In this document: in pieces, positions 4,819 to 19,900 of the stretch | Position numbering within the stretch: position 1 is the first letter of the stretch | How the letters are laid out: each line of letters opens with the position of its first letter | Origin: a virus | Lineage: Duplodnaviria; Heunggongvirae; Uroviricota; Caudoviricetes | Strand: one strand, 5' to 3' | Length of the DNA: 31,580 nucleotides | IMG/VR virus record: IMGVR_UViG_2700989363_000008 | Span: 1 to 31,580 of that record | Notes under the pieces: generated by a model | What the model was told of the DNA's origin: nothing | Database searches by the model: none | The model's input: only the letters and a program-made list of their open reading frames with translations | Made by a program: the position numbers and the translations under genes

Positions 4819-5679
4819 TTAGTTATGTAACTGCTTCCGGAATACAACAGCCGACGAGCTACAACGTAAAATTCGTTTGATTGTGGCAGTTGAGGAAACA
4901 GACTTGCATTTCTCAACATCATCAATAATGACCACATCCGGTACAGGAATGACGCGGGTATGCAATGTTTTTGCACTAATAACATCACAGCCATTCAGTG
5001 GTCGAATATCTGCATCTTCAGGCACTACCAGAAGCACACGTTTTTCCGGTGCAGAAAAGCCAGCAGCAAGAGTGCGTGACAATAAAGTCATTCCGCTGCG
5101 TGGCTTCATACAAATTTCAGAAATATGATTCTTTTCGTCCAAATGATGCTGGACATCATTTTTATCATCACTCAACAACTCTGCTGTTAATACAATCCCT
5201 GCTGTCTCAGATTTCCAGGAAATGCTGATATCCTGATCATCTGCATCAACATCATATTTCATCGAGTAAGGACTAAAGCTACGTCCAACGAACGCATCAT
5301 TTACCAGTACACGCCCACCCTGTCTGACCTGAAAGTCAACGCGCCCGGAAAGCTGATTTGCTGTTACAAGCAATGCCTTTTTTCTTTTTGTTTTATTGCT
5401 CATTGCCACCAACTGTTCAGCCATCTCTCTTGTCACACTACCAGAAACTCTTCCTTGCATTTTCACAGAAAATTTTCTGGATGTAGTAGCATCGACATTA
5501 AAAAATCTGGATGTAATCAGGCAGTTATTAACAATTGGCATCAGCTCACTTACGATTGTAAAAAATTCCCGGTAAAGCTCATTTTGCTTTTCAACACACA
5601 GCTTTCCACAATCGTCCAGCTTACGCTCAAGAGCACTTAACCTTTCCATTATTGAATTAATTTTTTGCAACTCTTTCAT
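4819..5679 (-). CDS. Hypothetical soluble protein (286 aa) with N-terminal coiled-coil-like segment; first gene of cos-proximal cargo cassette
   Basis: Start ATG at 5679 is preceded by AGGAGGTTTT (reverse complement of 5681-5690). The track's longer 373-aa ORF is an artefact of upstream read-through across the palindrome. No motif I can assign by eye. Confidence 0.65.
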   Translation of the reverse strand: MKELQKINSIMERLSALERKLDDCGKLCVEKQNELYREFFTIVSELMPIVNNCLITSRFFNVDATTSRKFSVKMQGRVSGSVTREMAEQLVAMSNKTKRKKALLVTANQLSGRVDFQVRQGGRVLVNDAFVGRSFSPYSMKYDVDADDQDISISWKSETAGIVLTAELLSDDKNDVQHHLDEKNHISEICMKPRSGMTLLSRTLAAGFSAPEKRVLLVVPEDADIRPLNGCDVISAKTLHTRVIPVPDVVIIDDVEKCKSVSSTATIKRILRCSSSAVVFRKQLHN

Positions 5680-5702: not shown

Positions 5703-5720
5703 GTGCGACCACGGTCGCAC
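5703..5720. repeat. Palindrome family 1 copy (GTGCGACCACGGTCGCAC): F-sopC-like candidate SopB centromere site
   Basis: Perfect 18-bp palindrome 24 bp upstream of the 4819-5679 start codon. Core TGCGACC-AC-GGTCGCA differs from the F plasmid SopB box TGGGACC-AC-GGTCCCA at one position per half-site. Confidence 0.6.
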
Positions 5721-5922: not shown

Positions 5923-5939
5923 GTGCGACCACGGTCGCA
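5923..5939. repeat. Palindrome family 1 copy (GTGCGACCACGGTCGCA)
   Basis: 16-bp perfect palindromic core TGCGACCACGGTCGCA between the DUF4406-like gene and direct repeat copy 2. Confidence 0.6.
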
Positions 5940-5959
5940 AACGAGAAACAAAGAGATTT

Positions 5960-6312: not shown

Positions 6313-6750
6313 TTAATTCAGGCATTGCGTCTTGATGTATTCCTGCAAGTAGTTAACCTGCGCAGTTATCCTGTCGATCCCACTTCGGAGACGGTAATAA
6401 TTGAGTTCAGCATCTGCTGTAAGTCTTGGGCTTTCTCCATCGCCCATGCTGCTGGCTCCGGTCGTTGACTTTGCACAGGTGGCGGCGACTTGCAGGCGCT
6501 TACGCCCAGCAGAAACATCAGCACGGAGGCTTTCGATAGTCGCGTTAGCATCAGCAAGCTCCTTTGTATATCTGGCATCGAGTTCTGCTACGTCACGTTG
6601 ACGCTTCTGCATATCAGCGATTGTGGATGTGGCTTTATCGCGCTGCTCTTTGTAGGAGATGGCGTTATCACGGTAATGATTAACCGCCCATGACAGGCAG
6701 ACGATGATGCAGATAACCAGAGCGGAGATAATCGCGGTTAACCGACTCAT
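6313..6750 (-). CDS. Rz: i-spanin Rz (145 aa from internal Met)
   Basis: [39 protein letters not shown]... closely resembles lambda Rz from memory; N-terminal TM anchor then coiled-coil. Confidence 0.9.
6366..6551 (-). CDS. Rz1: o-spanin Rz1 lipoprotein embedded in the +1 frame of Rz (~61 aa)
   Basis: [33 protein letters not shown]...: signal peptide with lipobox-like GVSAC followed by a proline-rich segment, nested within Rz as in lambda. Confidence 0.75.
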
Positions 6751-6838
6751 GACATCAACACCCCAACGGCCAGAAACCACGGCCACGCATCGTTGCCATT
6801 AAATGCGAGCAACGCTGCCATGAAAAAGAAAATCATGC

Positions 6839-7339
6839 TCATTGCTGCCCCCACAAACAGACTTCACGCTCAATCTCACGACGAGTCATCAGGCCTTTCC
6901 ATTGCTTACCGCCAGCAGATATCCAGCGACGTAGCTGATCACATGCGCCTTTGATATCGCCCTGGTTTATTTTGCGAAGAAGCGTCGATGTTCTGAAATT
7001 ACCAGCGCCCACGTTGTAAACGAACGAGTAAAGAGCGCCGCGCGTTGTTTCCGGTATATCGACTTTGATGTACGGGTTAATTTGTCTGGCGACAGTGGCA
7101 AGGTCTTTATTCAGGAGAGCTTTGCATTCTGCTTCGGTATACGTTTTACCTAGCATGATGTCTTTTCCAGTGTGTCCGTAACATACAGTCCATACGCCAA
7201 CAATATCTTTGTATGGTATGTAACTGACACCTTCCAGACCATCGTTACCACTTGGGCCAGTGATGAGCATAGACGCTATGGCAATAGCCCCGCCACCAAT
7301 AGCAGCTGTGACAGCTTTGCGTAATGATGACTGCATCAT
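6839..7339 (-). CDS. R: SAR endolysin (T4-lysozyme-like muramidase with N-terminal signal-anchor-release domain)
   Basis: N-terminal Gly/Ala-rich weakly hydrophobic SAR segment [20 protein letters not shown], then lysozyme-like core ...[22 protein letters not shown].... Positioned between holin and Rz. Confidence 0.85.
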
Positions 7340-7608
7340 ATTTCCTTCGGTGCTCTCTTCCCCAGCTCTCCAATAACCATCGCTGTAGCAGAAAGATTAT
7401 TGGTATTAGTTTTATCCAATATGTCCTGCAATATCTTCGTGCGCTTCATCTGCTCGCGTTTATTGAGCCGGTATGTAAGCACACCGAGGATAATGCTGAA
7501 CGCGACACCGATAATGAAGCTCCAATCCTGCAATGACAGGCTGGCAAAGAACGCAGCAAGACCAGCGCTACCATAAGGTGCACTTCTGTATAGTTCATCC
7601 ATCTTCAT
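7336..7608 (-). CDS. S: Holin (class II / pinholin-like) with dual-start motif
   Basis: 90-aa ORF starting MKMDEL (Met1-Lys-Met3, as in lambda S), two hydrophobic segments, charged C-terminus; immediately upstream of the SAR endolysin with overlapping stop/start. Confidence 0.7.
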
Positions 7609-7703
7609 ATCTCTTACCTCGCAATAGTTGCTGAGGTTTCGGCTTGGAAACTATATGGCGAAAATAACCCCTACCAAAAACGGCAGGGGAATATATTCTC
7701 CAG

Positions 7704-8780
7704 TTACTCAAATAACTTTTTCACTTCATCAACTGTCTGAAGATAACGTTCGCCCTCAATCTCAATACCTATTGCCTGACGTCCTAACTTCAGCGCAGCT
7801 TTAATAGTTGAGCCTGATCCCATAAAGAAATCGGCAACGATATCTCCGGGGCGTGAACTACTCTTTATAATATGTTCCATCATCGCTGCAGGTTTTTCAC
7901 ATGGGTGCTTGCCAGGATAATATTGCACAGGAGGAAACTCCCATACATCGGTATAAGGTACATCAGCAGTAACATGAAATGGACGGCGTAAATTTTCATA
8001 CTGAGCCTTCAAATCATCATACTGCTTCTTTACTTCCTCATAATGCAATTTCAGATCGCTATAACGCTTTTCATGTTCTGAATAATCAACATTAAAAGGA
8101 TATGGACACGGGACACCGAGTGAATCTGCCTTCCTGCGAAATAATTCGCATAGTTTATAAAAATAAATAAATGATGGAAGCCGCCACTGCGAATAAGAAA
8201 ACCAGTGTGAACACATCTGCTTTCCTGTCGCTGAATTAATGTCTGCGGCTGATATATCTAACTGACGGCGAGCCAGCGAAAAAGCATCAATTAGTGGAGA
8301 AAAAATATTTTTTCTTAAATCTGCACATTTTGAAGCATAACCTGACTGACCTTTAGCATAACCTGACGCGCCGTAATGCTCTGCAAATAATATTCTTTCA
8401 GTAGCAGGAAAATAAGCCCTTAAACTTTCTTTATGACAACCGCGCCACATACCACTTGGTTTAGCCCAAATGATATGGTTCAGAACATTGAAACGGTCGC
8501 GAGTTAATAATTCAATTTTTGACGCAAGGCGAGAGCCGGTAAACATATACAGGCTGCCATTAGGGGCCAATATCCGCCAAAATTCTGCCAAAAATTCGTC
8601 AATCCACCCCAAAAAGTCAGCATCGCTATCCCACTGGTTATCCCATGCGTTAGCCTTTACGCCGAAGTATGGTGGGTCTGTTGCAATCAAATTGACCGAG
8701 TTATCAGGGATGGTTTTGATAAATTGCAGAGAATCTGCGCAAACGAGTTGTGCGCCATGAATATTAGTGGTTTTGAACAT
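7704..8780 (-). CDS. DNA methyltransferase, N6-adenine/N4-cytosine type (beta class; motif IV before motif I)
   Basis: DPPY motif near the N-terminus (NLIATDPPYFGV) and SAM-binding FFMGSGST near the C-terminus. Start ambiguous: 8780 preferred (MFKTTNIHGAQL...), 8825 alternative; neither has a strong SD. AT-rich. First gene of the apparent late transcription unit. Confidence 0.8.
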   Translation of the reverse strand: MFKTTNIHGAQLVCADSLQFIKTIPDNSVNLIATDPPYFGVKANAWDNQWDSDADFLGWIDEFLAEFWRILAPNGSLYMFTGSRLASKIELLTRDRFNVLNHIIWAKPSGMWRGCHKESLRAYFPATERILFAEHYGASGYAKGQSGYASKCADLRKNIFSPLIDAFSLARRQLDISAADINSATGKQMCSHWFSYSQWRLPSFIYFYKLCELFRRKADSLGVPCPYPFNVDYSEHEKRYSDLKLHYEEVKKQYDDLKAQYENLRRPFHVTADVPYTDVWEFPPVQYYPGKHPCEKPAAMMEHIIKSSSRPGDIVADFFMGSGSTIKAALKLGRQAIGIEIEGERYLQTVDEVKKLFE

Positions 8781-8872
8781 AGCTATTATTTTTTTGCCTG
8801 GGTAAGCTAACCCGGCGATGCGCATCGCGGGTGGGCTTTAGGTTCAGCCTATAGCTCTGGCATGGGTTGACC

Positions 8873-8898
8873 GCAGGACAAGCTGCAACTTGTCCTGC
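8873..8898. other. Hairpin: 10-bp inverted repeat GCAGGACAAG-ctgcaa-CTTGTCCTGC in the late leader region
   Basis: Seen directly; no U-tract. Could be a qut/pause or RNA-processing element; function not established. Confidence 0.3.
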
Positions 8899-8912
8899 GC
8901 CCACTTTTCAGG

Positions 8913-8940
8913 CACAAAAAAACCGCCATAAAGGCGGCTT
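8913..8940 (-). terminator. Rho-independent terminator (candidate tR'-like late terminator)
   Basis: On the minus strand: GC stem CCGCC-tttat-GGCGG followed by TTTTTTT (plus strand aaaaaaaccgccataaaggcgg). Lies upstream of the methyltransferase/lysis genes, analogous to lambda tR'. Confidence 0.5.
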
Positions 8941-9024
8941 GTTGGCTGTTGGGTACAAAAAACCCAACTTAACAAAACAATAACTAAAAACCGTCATTTT
9001 GCCAAGCTTTTTCGTTTTTGTGCT

Positions 9025-9042
9025 GTGCGACCGTGGTCGCAC
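9025..9042. repeat. Palindrome family 1 copy (GTGCGACCGTGGTCGCAC; extends to a 24-bp palindrome 9022-9045)
   Basis: Perfect palindrome in the intergenic region between ORF 9048-9275 and the late leader; central dinucleotide GT rather than AC (same site, inverted). Confidence 0.6.
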
Positions 9043-9047
9043 AGCTT

Positions 9048-9275
9048 TTAGAAAGTTGCCTGCTTATATTCATCGGTCAAAGAATATCGACCAGATCCGC
9101 TACGCTTTGCAACCCCAAAACAGATCATCTGTTCGATGATAAATTCAACGGCAGCTTGACTCAAAAAACAGGCTTCGCTTAACTCTTTCAGGGAAATGCG
9201 TGGGTATCCACGCATAACACATTCCACACTCAGGGCCGCTTCAGTCATATTTCCACGAATTTCATTAATATTCAT
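9048..9275 (-). CDS. Hypothetical small protein (75 aa), possibly a winged-helix DNA-binding protein
   Basis: ORF with SD AGAGAGG upstream of ATG 9275; ...ISLKELSEACFLSQAAVEFIIEQ... looks HTH-like. No confident family assignment. Confidence 0.4.
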   Translation of the reverse strand: MNINEIRGNMTEAALSVECVMRGYPRISLKELSEACFLSQAAVEFIIEQMICFGVAKRSGSGRYSLTDEYKQATF

Positions 9276-9288
9276 AACGCCTCTCTAA

Positions 9289-9510
9289 TCAATCTTGAAA
9301 CTGGAAATCAACATCAGCCATAAAGCGGTTCAACTCAGCCAGTTTTGGCCCCATAGTCCCAACTAAGCGACCAGCCAGTCGGTCTGTTAGGTTGGTACTG
9401 TTGAAACCATATTCCTTTTCGAAACGTTCAACCTTCTGCCACAACTCATACAGTTCGTTAGCTATCTCCGCAACATCGTCGCGCATTTTTTCGTTACCTT
9501 GATAATTCAT
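9289..9510 (-). CDS. Hypothetical small protein (~73 aa)
   Basis: Start preferred at the internal Met (9510), preceded by GGAGG 7 nt upstream; the track start at 9528 lacks an SD. Confidence 0.4.
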   Translation of the reverse strand: MNYQGNEKMRDDVAEIANELYELWQKVERFEKEYGFNSTNLTDRLAGRLVGTMGPKLAELNRFMADVDFQFQD

Positions 9511-9675
9511 AATATCCTCCAAATTCATATAGTTAGTGGGTTATTGCCTCTCAATGACACGAACTGTAACTCTGCCAAACGAACACATCCAGTGTTATTT
9601 TTCGCTTTTTAGTGAAATTTTTAATTTGCGTTGTTTTCTTGTTTTGGTGTATTTTATGGATATGGAGGCTATAAT

Positions 9676-9987
9676 ATGTTTAACGTGATAACCCACCCTG
9701 CAGCACTGGATGAACTGCTTGAACTACCAGATGATTTGCGAGGTCGCATGACCAGATTAATTGAGCGACTGGAGAAAGAAGGCAACAAACTGAAGATGCC
9801 CCATAGCCGTGTAATAGGTGGAGGGCTTTTTGAACTACGAGTAGGGGATAAAAACATCGCAAGAACGCTGTACGCCTACGCGACTGGTAACGAAATTTAT
9901 CTATTGCATGCATTTGTAAAAAAGACACAGAAAACACCGGTGAAGGCTATCGAAATCGCCAGAACTCGCCTGAAGGAGATGAACTGA
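9676..9987 (+). CDS. Type II toxin, HigB/RelE-fold (phage Gp49-like family)
   Basis: MFNVITHPAALDELLELPDDLRGRMTRLIERLEKEG...GGGLFELRVGDKNIARTLYAYATGNEIYLLHAFVKKTQKTP fits the Gp49/HigB signature as recalled. GGAGG SD before ATG 9676; stop overlaps the antitoxin start (TGATG). Confidence 0.8.
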   Translation: MFNVITHPAALDELLELPDDLRGRMTRLIERLEKEGNKLKMPHSRVIGGGLFELRVGDKNIARTLYAYATGNEIYLLHAFVKKTQKTPVKAIEIARTRLKEMN

Positions 9988-10274
9988 TGAAAGCGAAAGG
10001 CATCCCGTTTAACGAAGTAAAAGAAAAACTCCTCAACACTCCAGAAGCCGTCAAAGGATATGAAGAGGCCGACAAAGAGCTGGAGATGGTCGAAATGCTA
10101 TACGAAATGAGGGAAAGAGCAGGTTTAACGAAATCAGCTCTGGCTGAACGAATGGGGTTGCGACCGTCAGCCATCAGCCGCCTGGAAAGCAATCCTTTAG
10201 GGGCAAGTATGAAAACTTTGGCTAAATATGCTCATGCCTGCGGCGCAACCATCGATATTCGCGCTGTTTATTAA
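9987..10274 (+). CDS. HTH-XRE antitoxin (HigA-like), partner of the Gp49/HigB-like toxin
   Basis: 95-aa protein with HTH segment LTKSALAERMGLRPSAISRLE; translationally coupled to the upstream toxin. Only plus-strand pair amid minus-strand genes. Confidence 0.8.
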   Translation: MKAKGIPFNEVKEKLLNTPEAVKGYEEADKELEMVEMLYEMRERAGLTKSALAERMGLRPSAISRLESNPLGASMKTLAKYAHACGATIDIRAVY

Positions 10275-14812: not shown

Positions 14813-15038
14813 TTTCTTGTGCGACCACGGTCGCACCCTCTCTGATTTCCAAGTAACGCTTAATCCAAAGATTTTCTATATGCTTATTACCTGGCTGATT
14901 TGATAAATACCAATCGGCAATTACAGACTGCTTATTACTATCTGGTCGTGTCCTGTAACCACAAGTTGGACACCAGATAACATATTCATTTCTTACCCCC
15001 GAATACCTTAATTCTGGCTTCGACGGTTTCCTGAACAT
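14793..15038 (-). CDS. Hypothetical zinc-ribbon protein (~81 aa)
   Basis: CPTCGYRTRP motif; start uncertain (15038 or 15113). Confidence 0.35.
   Translation of the reverse strand: MFRKPSKPELRYSGVRNEYVIWCPTCGYRTRPDSNKQSVIADWYLSNQPGNKHIENLWIKRYLEIREGATVVAQENENNAI
14819..14836. repeat. Palindrome family 1 copy (GTGCGACCACGGTCGCAC)
   Basis: Perfect 18-bp palindrome immediately upstream of the 14609-14812 start codon. Confidence 0.6.
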
Positions 15039-15045
15039 AACTTGT

Positions 15046-15756
15046 TTACAAAGGCAGAATGGCACTTCCTGCCCGATGGCGTTTGATGATTTCACTGCGC
15101 TTCTCCGCCGCATTTAATAATGCAGTTCGATTTAAGCTCAGACATCGCGACTTAATTAAAAGCCAGCGTTCTTTATAATCTTGTCTCCAGCTATCAATAG
15201 ATATATTCAGTAGAAAACTCAGATGCCTGTCCTGTTCTCTCTCATCAACTGCCTCAGCACACGTAAGTTCTGATTTAACCTGCTGTGCCGCGTAATAAAT
15301 CAATTTCCGCATGGCTTTTTTCGTGGAGGCCTTCATTTTTTTAAAGCCGCCCCCCGAATGAGCAACCAGAAAATCAAGCCATAACCACTGACAAACAATC
15401 ACATCATTGTTGTAATCAGGCTTGCATCCGTAGCAATAATAAAGCCAGGCTGATTCCTCGTTATTCAACTGACCAATAGCCCTGCGCCAGCTGGCGCTCT
15501 GAAAATCAATATCAGTGAGCAACATTGATGATTGTTTAAATGTTTTCCCCTGGTGGAATCTAACCGGCTCAGCAGGAACGGACACTTCGTATGAGTTATC
15601 ATCCCCCACACTGATTGACCGGACTGGTTTATTGTTAAACCGTCCTGACCTACCGAGACGCATCTGCTCAAGCTGGACCTCCAGAATGCCACGCTGGCGA
15701 TAATGAACATCAGCCAATGCCGTAGAGACGCAGCTGCGTATATACTCAAGCTCCAC
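15046..15756 (-). CDS. Regulatory protein candidate (236 aa) immediately downstream of cro; possible Q-like late regulator by position
   Basis: GTG start with AAGGAGA SD; follows cro in the same operon, where N15 is recalled to carry Q. No sequence-level confirmation. Confidence 0.4.
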   Translation of the reverse strand: MELEYIRSCVSTALADVHYRQRGILEVQLEQMRLGRSGRFNNKPVRSISVGDDNSYEVSVPAEPVRFHQGKTFKQSSMLLTDIDFQSASWRRAIGQLNNEESAWLYYCYGCKPDYNNDVIVCQWLWLDFLVAHSGGGFKKMKASTKKAMRKLIYYAAQQVKSELTCAEAVDEREQDRHLSFLLNISIDSWRQDYKERWLLIKSRCLSLNRTALLNAAEKRSEIIKRHRAGSAILPL

Positions 15757-16900: not shown

Positions 16901-19900
16901 ATGACATTAAACGATTTCTATGCGGATCGCTTTGGCAGCGATCCGTTCTCGCTAATTGAAGCAGCACGGGATGAACTAACCGAGCTGGCACAGATGGCTG
17001 GTATCAACTGGCCTGCCTGTTCCGACAACATCCAACTCAACCCTCGCGGGGGGGTTGAGCGTTACTCTTCATACAATAAAACATCTCCAGAAGCTCTCGA
17101 AAAGAGCCTGAAAGGACGCGTAGAAATTTACTCCCGGCTGGAACACAGCAAAGGGATTGATTACCCGTTCATTAACTTCGTCCATAAAGGCAGCGATGCT
17201 GGCTCATGGAGCGGTTTCTCCTTCCTGTTTTCTGAATATCGCCGTGAGCAACAACGGAATAATGCGACCGTGGTCGCACAACCGGAAGAAGAACGGGAAA
17301 GAATAGAACGTCAGGCCGAAGCACGTCGTCGCCGTGAAGAACAAAAACGAATTAATGACCTGAAAAACAACCAAATGGACCATGAACGTTTGCTGGGATG
17401 GCTGGCATTCCACAGCGCGTGGGAACATGCTCCGGCTGAAGACGGCTCATGGCCATATGCGATTAAAAAAGGTATTCGTGACGTTTTTAGTTCATGTGAT
17501 GTGCGTCGCGTGACCAGTCACGACAGTGCGAAATGGAGTCGGGGACCAACCACATATATGGCTATCCCTCTGGCTCACCTGGACGGTCGTTACGATGGTC
17601 GTATTGTGGGTTGGCAGCGAATCGACAAACAAGGTGGGAAATACCAGACCAGCGCAGTAACCAGCGGCGATTTCGTCGGTGCCTGCTTTGTTATCGGTGA
17701 GCTGAAAGGGGCGCAAAACATCGCTGTTACAGAAGGTTTTGCTACTGGTGCATCCATCTGGCTTGCCACGAAAAAAGATAAACGCTTTGACGCTGTGGTT
17801 GTCGCTGTATCCGCTAACAACATGGTTCATGTTGTGGAACAACTGGTAAACATGTACCCGGCGGCAAAAATCACCTGCGCACTGGATAATGACCGGAAAT
17901 CTGCCACAGAAGGAAAAGGGAATACCGGCCTGCGGACTGGCTATGAAATCTTATCGAAATTCAACGATGTCCGCTGCGTCTATCCAACTTTTGAAGACGA
18001 TCCGCAAATGGAGTGCAGTGACTTCAACGACCTGCACAAACTACGTGGACTTCGTGAAACAGCACGTCAACTATTTGCAACAGCAAACCGCCTGAAAACC
18101 GGTACTGATTTGCTATCTCTGACGCTCAACCGCCTGAAGACAATTAAGCGGGATAACCGTCGTACTTTTGCCAAAGAGCTGCTGAGAGCGGTGGATATTG
18201 GCATGCTAACCTGCCCGGTTCCTAACAGTCCGTCAGATTTATTTAACATGTTCTGCATCGTTCTGCGTGAAATGGGACTGGAAAATATCTATCGCGCTAC
18301 GGTAAAAGACCACATTGCCCGTCGCCTGAATAAAAAGTGCCGTATTGCCCAGGCTCCGCGCTCTTTCAGCGAAAGCATAACTGATCCCAATAAACGCCCT
18401 CAACATATCACCTATAAGCGTTTTGAAACTTCGGTAATGACCGATGATGTCCTGAAGTACGTGCAATCACTACAGGGGATAGTCATCGTCCGTGCTGGTA
18501 TGGGTTCCGGCAAATCTACTGGATTGTTACGACCGTTAATGCATAGCTCAGAACGTGGTATCTCTGTTGCTCACCGTGTCTCCCTTATTGGTGGCCTGTG
18601 GGAAATGATGACAGAAGGAAAAGGTGTAAAAGCCGATATCCTGCACTATCAGGACCCTGGCTATCAGGAAATGGCTCCATACGCCAGTAAACTGACCATC
18701 TGCATAAACTCGATTGTTAAAAACTGCTGGCAACCGTTGATGCGCCAGCACGACTATTTTGGCTTTGACGAGGCCACGCAAGGGCTACGTGCCGTTCTTT
18801 CCGGTCGGGCTATGGAAAACCCGGTTGCTGTATTCAATACGCTAATTGACGCGCTGGCCAGAACGGAACAACACCCAATCATGGTGGATGCTGATGCGAA
18901 CGATCTACTGGTTGACTTGGCTGAACTGGCTATGAAACGCCGTGAAGATCTAGGTTTACCGGCATGGCTGCAGATCCACGTAATTGAATTACCTGTTGAT
19001 GTTCGCAACCGCGAAACAGGTGAGCCAATCCGGGTTTTTTATACAGAAAAAGATCGCATCATGACCGAGGTGGTGAAAGCTGTATCGGATGGCGAAAAAA
19101 TCATGTTGGCCACCGACAGCTCCACCTTTGCAGAAGATGTGACAGCCACCCTGAGAATGCATTTTCCTGGTAAGAAATTTCTGTGCGTAAACCAGAAAAG
19201 CAAACAGGATGAAGAAGTCGATGCCTTTACCAACCAGCCAAAAGTAATGGTGATGAAATACGATGGACTGATCTACAGCCCGTCGATTTCCTCCGGGGTG
19301 TCATTTGAGAAAAAACATTTTGACCGTCATTTCGGCATGTTCTGCGGTGAAGTTGTGCCCAGCGACGCAGTGCAAATGCTACGCCGCGACCGTACAGCAA
19401 AAGAATTTATTATCGGCTTTGATAAAGCTCGTGCAAAACGCGAGACTGATCCGCAAAAAATAGAACGTGCATTCGCCCAGGCATTACTTGCTACCGCAGG
19501 CATGAACGGTGAACTGACGGATGTCGTTTTCGATGGCGACCGTATATCAATGGGGGTGGCCAATACCGACTTTACCAGGATGAAAATTAAAGCTGCCGCA
19601 ATTGAAGCGTCTGCGCGTAACGACTACGCCAGCAACATGATCTGCATCATGCACAGCGACGGTTATAAGGTATCGCCATTAGCTACCGATTATGCCGCAA
19701 ATGATTTTGGTAAAGAGCTGCGCAAAGAAGCGCGGGATATTGTGTGGGAACAGACGCTGGATCTGCACCTCAATACAGAGACACCAGAAGAATCAGAGCG
19801 TGAAGAACTACTAAAAAAACGTGCGCTAACGCTTGAAGAACAGGCAAAACTGGTCCGCTGGGATATTGAGAACGAACTGAAATTACCGGTTGAAGAAGGC

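Follow-up and report, generated by a model that had tools for sequence, protein, structure and literature searches.

A predicted late operon of an N15-like phage-plasmid is headed by an M.EcoGII-family methyltransferase gene behind a conserved structured leader

The closest described relatives of the locus presented here are found in the phage-plasmids N15, phiKO2 and PY54. The N15 record gives genes 50 and 51, -35 and -10 hexamers, a rho-independent terminator, gene 52 ("possible adenine-specific modification methylase"), a terminator, the holin gene 53, the lysozyme gene 54 and gene 55. The phiKO2 record lists a "putative plasmid partitioning site", a "putative late promoter", a terminator, gp52 as "putative DNA adenine methylase" and a terminator, and the corresponding place in PY54 is taken by an adenine methylase. 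The DNA analyzed here, termed the window, is a stretch of 31,580 nucleotides (positions 1 to 31,580 of the IMG/VR virus record IMGVR_UViG_2700989363_000008, Caudoviricetes). This DNA represents a linear phage-plasmid of the N15-like kind, whose region of interest (7704 to 9047) contains a DNA methyltransferase gene preceded by late control signals and a structured leader. As the same layout is annotated in N15 and phiKO2, the arrangement itself was already known. The new part may be the conserved folded RNA just 5' of the methyltransferase gene.

M.EcoGII, from a prophage of E. coli O104:H4, methylates adenines in any sequence context; its gene is prophage-borne and silent in the lysogen, and its constitutive expression slows growth (PMC5778455). 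All the ancestors of M.EcoGII that were purified accepted generic DNA and RNA as methylation substrates. Among site-specific enzymes the closest to M.EcoGII is M.PflMI, with just 27% identity, and the members of the family are reported to be prophage-borne orphans. Two described regulatory arrangements are also relevant: the lambda Q unit (pR' - qut - tR' - late genes), and the Mu com-mom and Com-controlled Hia5 and Hin1523 systems, in which late, host-harmful, broad anti-restriction enzymes are controlled post-transcriptionally through 5' RNA structure.

The region is best explained as an N15-like late-operon control region, the first late gene of which encodes an M.EcoGII-family orphan adenine methyltransferase. 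This explanation, together with the mechanism proposed below, is considered likely. The components are listed from upstream to downstream, followed by the distant regulator:

9023-9044, SopB-binding centromere palindrome CTGTGCGACCACGGTCGCACAG, homologue of N15 IR3, recognized by sequence and position
8977-9005, minus strand, putative sigma-70-type late promoter (-35 TTGGCA, 17-nt spacer, -10 TATTGT), recognized by consensus scan and conservation
8963-8976, minus strand, initial transcribed stretch with a -10-like TAAGTT, near-invariant in the alignment
8948-8968, minus strand, hairpin 1 of the short terminated transcript (GUUGGG/CCCAAC), recognized by folding
8913-8940, minus strand, tR'-like intrinsic terminator, an 8-bp GC-rich stem (8940-8920) followed by T7
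8799-8912, minus strand, conserved structured leader RNA of 114 nt with several helices, in the methyltransferase 5' untranslated region, recognized by covariance model
7704-8780, minus strand, M.EcoGII-family orphan DNA methyltransferase (beta class, N6-adenine), homologue of N15 gene 52 (PF01555 N6_N4_Mtase, E = 9e-47)
7660-7689, minus strand, second intrinsic terminator, in the methyltransferase-holin gap, a 9-bp stem with a U-rich tail
15046-15756, minus strand, Q-like antiterminator, the presumed trans-acting late regulator (PF06323, E = 4e-84; phrog_304)

The methyltransferase had been assigned to the beta class of N6A/N4C enzymes by an initial annotation made from the sequence, and this assignment was borne out. 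In addition to the PF01555 match, the DPPY motif (motif IV, residues 35-38) is N-terminal and FMGSG (FxGxG, motif I, residues 319-323) is C-terminal, with the target-recognition domain between them, which is the order of the beta class; both motifs are invariant in the alignment. The best matches in the PDB are M.RsrI, M.MboIIA and CcrM. By tblastn, the protein is 83% identical to the N15 open reading frame, 62% to phiKO2 gp52 and 59% to PY54 gp60. It is also 55-57% identical to the methyltransferase of about 347 residues of the lambdoid phages SfV (orf48), phiP27, mEp460, cdtI and several Stx2 phages, and 51-60% identical to those of Vibrio and Aeromonas phages. The longest open reading frame reaches 8825, and the start is probably at 8780, giving 358 residues. 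An N-terminal extension to 8825 was rejected, as relatives annotated by PGAP begin at an ATG aligned with 8780 and the 15 additional codons overlap conserved RNA helices. Gene 52 appears 78 codons shorter in the N15 record, which starts it at an internal in-frame ATG (N15 position 41621), whereas the homologous frame opens at 41387. The annotated N15 gp52 is thus devoid of its active-site motif, as DPPY sits in the omitted N-terminal stretch. A frameshift in N15 gene 52 was rejected, the frame being continuous from 41387.

Compared with the M.EcoGII sequence taken from the published supplement, the window enzyme is 55% identical over the full length (E = 2e-141), well over the 27% that separates M.PflMI from M.EcoGII, and this places it in the family. 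Its identity rises to 69% with Anc250, an ancestral M.EcoGII obtained by reconstruction, and SfV orf48 is 80% identical to M.EcoGII itself. The window enzyme and M.EcoGII share motif order and size as well as a prophage-borne, orphan gene, and by analogy may share silence in the lysogen. They differ in that the central region of the window enzyme diverges, possibly with an effect on specificity, and in that M.EcoGII-type genes follow a different Q, in lambdoid prophages that are integrated. The neighbors of the methyltransferase gene encode a phrog_331 winged-helix protein, a phrog_4830 protein, a HigB/helix-turn-helix toxin-antitoxin pair, the holin and the endolysin. That no partner restriction gene is visible had been claimed before, and Pfam and PADLOC indeed detected no restriction endonuclease family among the neighboring open reading frames, so that no adjacent cognate endonuclease was found. 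Given the kinship with M.EcoGII and the lack of a detected restriction partner, the role of the enzyme is most likely a broad, late, self-protective methylation of adenines in the progeny DNA. The initial annotation had also suggested self-protection of the progeny; this suits the M.EcoGII family and stands as a prediction from family membership.

About 130 nt of strongly folding sequence extend from the first terminator to the ATG of the methyltransferase, with hairpins including a pairing of CGCAGGACAAG with CUUGUCCUGCG. This stretch is about 95% identical between the window and N15, against about 70% for the flanking gene 51. The two hairpins previously noticed were both found, and those that follow the terminator proved to be parts of the single conserved element at 8799-8912 (-49.1 kcal/mol, z = -3.9). 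Its helices are P2, a long hairpin; P3, another hairpin; P4, a hairpin whose loop, (U/A)G(C/U)GCA, is conserved; and P4a, a short helix that encloses P4. The motifs UGGGCG, GCCCA and AGCYUA are invariant, and the alignment shows that the stems vary between lineages by paired changes. RNAalifold applied to plain MAFFT alignments returned fragments only, as the hairpins differ in length; a hand-annotated seed and a covariance model (R1) were needed. The seed consisted of 21 leader copies from chromosomal prophages, with no N15-type sequence. R1 produced 57 hits in 660 kb from 100 loci, one per locus, all immediately 5' of the methyltransferase gene or of com and the methyltransferase gene. The N15-type copies, which are outside the seed, scored 36.3 bits in the window (E = 1.4e-6), 39 in N15, 49 in phiKO2 and 50 in PY54.

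Standard pairs occupy 85.6% of the leader pair cells, compared with 66% after shuffling and 26-44% with slid partners. Compensatory changes are present at 28 of the 34 modeled pairs, with up to five pair types per position in P2, and the covariation score is 0.45, compared with at most 0.105 in the slid controls; as the alignment was fitted to the model, these pairing and covariation figures are somewhat inflated. The pairing of UGGGC with the distal GCCCA is possible in 98% of cells and is doubly compensated in phiARM81ld. An alternative pairing of UGGGCG with the proximal CGCYCRU shows only wobble-compatible changes. As the distal pairing overlaps P4a, mutually exclusive helices may form. 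The invariant (A/G/U)UGGGCG motif always opens with a triplet that could serve as a start codon (ATG in 42, GTG in 10 and TTG in one of the 53 distinct leaders; GTG at 8902-8904 in the window). A coding upstream frame was rejected, since its length ranges from 3 to 75 codons with neither a conserved peptide nor a conserved stop position. Rfam 15 gave no leader match, either in a scan of the whole window at gathering thresholds, or at E <= 10 over 7500-9400, or at E <= 1 in seven related loci; N15-type and SfV-type copies were both covered. A literature search returned nothing specific on a prior description of the leader or of a methyltransferase between Q and S.

The distribution of the element was followed with an exact-pattern scan of IMG/VR, which yielded 63 loci with about 30 sequence variants, and with a protein-guided scan of one genome per species, which yielded 80 further methyltransferase loci. 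The leader stands directly 5' of the methyltransferase gene in SfV and in chromosomal prophages of Providencia, Proteus, Morganella, Serratia, Erwinia, Yersinia, Plesiomonas, Kluyvera, Klebsiella, Citrobacter, Mixta and E. albertii. Two close M.EcoGII relatives, SfV orf48 and an E. albertii protein (L147, with the same N-terminus), carry the same leader as the window. In Aeromonas and Vibrio elements, the leader precedes a com-like gene, which is followed by the methyltransferase gene. A phrog_331 winged-helix gene (gp51 in the window, orf47 in SfV) is directly 5' of 37 of the 57 leaders, and is not detectable upstream of the other 20. In N15-like elements, the late promoter and terminator are placed between this gene and the leader. 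The leader is found behind unrelated promoters and Q proteins, at a fixed distance from and in a fixed orientation to the methyltransferase start; it travels with the methyltransferase gene and not with the antitermination system. The sequences thus point to a structured element, apparently without a name so far, that is well supported, is distributed widely and is tied to M.EcoGII-family methyltransferase genes. Xenorhabdus and Photorhabdus copies have a shortened version. Methyltransferase relatives of Vibrio, Aliivibrio and Psychromonas (nine loci) have a different conserved element about 150 nt 5' of the gene, ATGCCTTGAGTACCTGAGACCCA ... TGGAGAGGAAGCA ... hairpin ... TATTCAAGGCTCT, which R1 did not hit.

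Upstream of the leader, the palindrome belongs to the same sequence family as the centromere sites IR1-IR4 of N15 and occupies the position of IR3; it is found at the same position in N15, phiKO2 and relatives. The N15 sites, including an IR3 oligonucleotide, have been used experimentally as SopB centromeres (PMC7205306, Table 4). The 18-mer core is present in five copies in the window, with 0.00 expected by chance. The palindrome had been placed within the leader of the methyltransferase gene; it does exist, but it is upstream of the transcript, since the promoter (9005-8977) lies between it and the terminator. The other copies are at 5703-5720 and 5923-5940, a close pair in the 280-nt gap from a DUF4406 gene to the open reading frame 4819-5679; at 14819-14836, just after the Q gene; and at 17262-17279, within repA. 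The right-arm stretch of N15 examined contains four copies instead of five, with a single one (IR4) in the region of genes 58/59, against the two close copies of the window 3' of the DUF4406 gene.

The hexamers align with the annotated -35 and -10 of N15 and with the "putative late promoter" of phiKO2; the -10 is TATTGT in the window and TATCTT in N15. Palindrome, hexamers, the stretch following the -10, terminator and leader are aligned in register across elements from Escherichia, Enterobacter, Citrobacter, Klebsiella and Yersinia. The stretch 8963-8976 is near-invariant in nine phage-plasmids including PY54, and is more conserved than the promoter hexamers. TAAGTT or TATGTT is kept just 3' of the -10 among the aligned phage-plasmids and resembles a -10-like pause signal, making this stretch a candidate sigma-dependent pause and Q-loading site. 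By-eye reading of the alignment, with no pair-counting tool, indicates that the complementarity of the hairpin 1 stem is kept in N15 (with wobble pairs), in the Klebsiella types and in PY54 (GUUGGC/GCUAAC, one G-C to C-G swap). The short terminated transcript folds with -26.4 kcal/mol (z = -4.8). Its terminator, described earlier as a canonical tR'-like intrinsic terminator, is just that: GGCGGTTTTTTT is invariant in all aligned relatives, and a terminator is annotated at the same spot in N15 and phiKO2.

A promoter and a terminator within about 60 nt, 5' of the late genes, and a Q-family protein encoded on the same element make up a unit of the lambda type. The lambda Q unit likewise has a constitutive-looking promoter, a close terminator, a Q gene in the early region and lysis genes as the first late functions. 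The window differs in that its Q is of the PF06323/N15 type (67% identical to N15 gp40), that a centromere abuts the promoter, and that the methyltransferase gene and its leader are interposed; dependence on Q is suggested by analogy. A search of the PDB for relatives of this Q protein, made to assign its type, found none. The position of the methyltransferase as first gene of the late, or lysis, unit agrees with the annotated N15 and phiKO2 regions. The gene had been described as directly upstream of the holin, endolysin and spanin genes; the order on the same strand is correct, but the second terminator (7689-7668; -23.4 kcal/mol, z = -5.1) is in between, at a place where terminators are annotated in N15, phiKO2 and SfV. 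The order in SfV is Q, tR' terminator, orf47, methyltransferase, terminator, S, R and Rz/Rz1. The same family is present in SfV and further lambdoid phages, whose Q and the N15-type Q are unrelated; late operons in which such a methyltransferase gene is the first substantial one are therefore widespread.

The following mechanism is proposed. In the lysogen, a weak constitutive late promoter would yield only a transcript of about 60 nt, consisting of hairpin 1 and the terminator and stopping at 8913. Upon induction, the Q-like protein would be loaded onto RNA polymerase at the conserved promoter-proximal stretch, and the modified polymerase would pass both terminators to produce a single late transcript comprising the leader and the methyltransferase, holin, endolysin, spanin and packaging genes. 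The SopB box, as one of the dispersed centromere sites, probably couples the partition proteins to efficient late expression, as in N15, where Ravin, Rech and Lane reportedly showed in 2008 that the Sop system helps the late genes to be expressed. The methyltransferase would act on adenines almost or entirely irrespective of sequence context, both in replicating DNA and in DNA that is packaged, so that the progeny DNA would be shielded from many restriction systems. Because such an enzyme harms the host, it would be silenced at two levels, the first being the terminator and the second most likely the structured 5' untranslated region, limiting or timing translation. This scheme builds on the homology, synteny, signals and leader covariation presented above. 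Its promoter, Q and SopB steps are drawn from the lambda and N15 paradigms, promiscuous methylation is predicted from family membership, and regulation by the leader is a proposal.

Gating the translation of a toxic methyltransferase is proposed as the most likely function of the leader. The proposal is based on the constancy of the leader at the methyltransferase start whatever the promoter or Q, on the lack of a normally spaced Shine-Dalgarno sequence, on the toxicity known in the family, and on the insertion of Com elsewhere. A gene for a Com-type zinc ribbon is located between the leader and the methyltransferase gene in Aeromonas and Vibrio relatives, phiARM81ld among them, which shows translational control to be recurrent for this family. 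No Com-like open reading frame was found in the window, where gp50 and gp51 are not zinc ribbons. In function, the window methyltransferase would resemble Mu Mom as well as Hia5 and Hin1523, which are under Com control, in being a late, harmful modification enzyme with Com-like genes beside its Aeromonas and Vibrio relatives. The differences are that com is absent from the window, that Hia5-type enzymes are Dam-related and not of the beta class, that Mom is not a methyltransferase, and that a translation-inhibiting structure is, for this leader, a proposal. Since UGGGCG can pair with either the proximal CGCYCRU or the distal GCCCA, the latter overlapping a competing covarying helix, the leader may be a switch. 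It is tentatively suggested, at somewhat less than an even chance, that it represents a class of cis-regulatory RNA not described before, associated with M.EcoGII-family methyltransferase genes on N15-like phage-plasmids and on lambdoid and other prophages from Enterobacterales, Aeromonas and Vibrio, possibly a switch gating a toxic non-specific methyltransferase. The trigger could be a metabolite, for instance S-adenosylmethionine, or a phage factor, namely the phrog_331 winged-helix protein or, in some lineages, Com.

Several observations weigh against the favored account, which was built from sequence. The promoter matches the consensus at only 9 of 12 positions, and such matches occur at chance level (8 found, 8.0 expected in the scan); its call depends on conservation and on the annotations of N15 and phiKO2, which carry the label putative too. 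The protein is 55% identical to M.EcoGII and is least conserved in its middle third, the central target-recognition region, so that a sequence-specific activity is possible. A sequence-specific orphan, Dam-like or with another motif, could guard against one class of restriction or regulate packaging, replication or the lysogeny switch. Databases name such proteins "site-specific DNA-methyltransferase" or "DNA adenine methylase", the closest solved relative, M.RsrI, is site-specific, and further methyltransferases in PY54 and N15 suggest a division of labor. These names are automatic, however, and the identities to M.EcoGII and Anc250 place the window enzyme deep in a clade whose tested members are non-specific, far from the nearest specific one. 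The double containment, by the terminator and by the leader or, in relatives, Com, also suits a toxic activity. A sequence-specific enzyme is accordingly judged unlikely, though it deserves consideration. It is most improbable that the methyltransferase is half of a restriction-modification system with its endonuclease elsewhere on the element: several nearby open reading frames have no family assignment, but none of the neighbors matched an endonuclease family in Pfam or PADLOC, the same solitary layout recurs in N15, phiKO2, PY54, SfV and dozens of prophages, and the family is one of orphans.

Two other readings concern the leader. It could be a passive RNA, a 5' stabilizer or a processing site that protects the late mRNA or parts it from the short terminated RNA. 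The stability of the fold and its location right at the beginning of the readthrough mRNA would suit this, as would the lack of a demonstrable occlusion of the start codon by the leader. The latter point, together with the missing Shine-Dalgarno sequence at normal spacing, also counts against the favored account. In SfV-type phages, however, the element is 3' of orf47 and not at the 5' end, yet is always beside the methyltransferase start, and the invariant UGGGCG, GCCCA and AGCCUA together with two competing helices suggest more than a clamp; a passive role is thought rather unlikely. The inverted repeats of 8799-8912 could instead act as double-stranded DNA, either as operators for a dimeric protein such as that of phrog_331 or as a recombination or mosaic joint, their symmetry mimicking covariation. 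The stems are perfect DNA palindromes, the phrog_331 gene is frequently adjacent, and A-C combinations (147) outnumber G-U (46), so that these counts decide neither the strand nor the RNA or DNA nature of the element, a further point against the favored account. The A-C cases are concentrated in P3, whose bases can pair with UGGGCG instead, and sense-strand-specific G-U pairs are present in P2 and P4a. Four helices of differing sequence, with so many pair types per position, fit poorly with one DNA-binding specificity, and the 5-bp long-range pairing is doubly compensated in phiARM81ld. The phrog_331 gene is undetectable upstream of more than a third of the leaders, and the element lies within the transcript, at its constant place relative to the methyltransferase start behind unrelated promoters and Q proteins. 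A function as DNA is thus held to be improbable, and a leader RNA that limits translation of the methyltransferase is preferred.

The other features of the window agree with an N15-like element encoding telN, sopAB, repA, cB/cro and Q. This identity was established by a Pfam scan (TelK domains, SopB_HTH, ParA-type AAA_31, Toprim, P22_Cro and Phage_antiter_Q). Lambda-like terminase genes are also present. By megablast, the DNA is 96-100% identical to that of the E. coli N15-like phages PhiR46_1 and YDC107_1 (46 kb) and of many E. coli "plasmids". All late genes are on the minus strand. The remaining features are:

9048-9275, minus strand, small gp51-like winged-helix protein (phrog_331, E = 3e-32; weak HTH_24 match), stop codon side adjoining the palindrome
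7336-7608, minus strand, holin (phrog_1350, E = 1.2e-28)
6839-7339, minus strand, endolysin, a lysozyme (Pfam Phage_lysozyme, 4.5e-46)
6313-6786, minus strand, Rz (Pfam Phage_lysis, 5.6e-37)
6366-6578, minus strand, Rz1, embedded in Rz
16901-20884, large RepA-type replicase (Toprim; RepA primase-type; Pfam)
23031-24944, minus strand, protelomerase, telN (Pfam)
25592-27723, SopA and SopB (Pfam)

The likeness to N15, phiKO2 and PY54 extends to gene order, palindrome, promoter hexamers, terminators, leader, methyltransferase, lysis cassette and Q-like regulator. The holin, endolysin and Rz differ from those of N15 in being of the P22/Stx-phage type. SfV orf47 belongs to phrog_331 like gp51 (E = 6e-35). 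A pair of genes for a Gp49/HigB-like toxin and a helix-turn-helix antitoxin (9631-10274, plus strand) is convergent with the gp50 and gp51 genes, as are genes 48 and 49 in N15. An uncut telRL-type palindrome, CCCATTATACGC|GCGTATAATGGG, is located at 25115-25156 between telN and sopA, and the cos region beside the terminase genes is likewise internal, so that the sequence is a circularized or permuted assembly corresponding to neither natural linear form. Rfam matches at gathering score (c4-a1b1 targets, isrK, C4 antisense RNA and IS009) were obtained at 21431-21631 (plus strand) and 27790-27993 (minus strand); the c4-a1b1, isrK and C4 matches mark an N15-type anti-immunity locus, and the IS009 RNA match is just 3' of sopB. 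Also 3' of sopB, a second protein with a S-adenosylmethionine-dependent methyltransferase fold (Methyltransf_12/23/25; 28073-28741, plus strand) is unrelated to the late enzyme.

The late-operon orphan methyltransferase is in itself ordinary here, the window being one more N15-like element with an arrangement described in 2000-2004. The comparison connects gene 52 of N15, along with the relatives of that gene, to M.EcoGII, which is in wide use as a non-specific tool enzyme for N6-methyladenine. Being inducible, N15-like plasmids and SfV-like phages lend themselves to the study of its natural role, predicted to be a broad anti-restriction marking of progeny DNA, and of its cost to the host. The conserved covarying leader is a candidate means of silencing a toxic enzyme and a possible new Rfam family. 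If it is indeed a switch, it would explain why M.EcoGII-type enzymes remain silent up to the late phase of infection.

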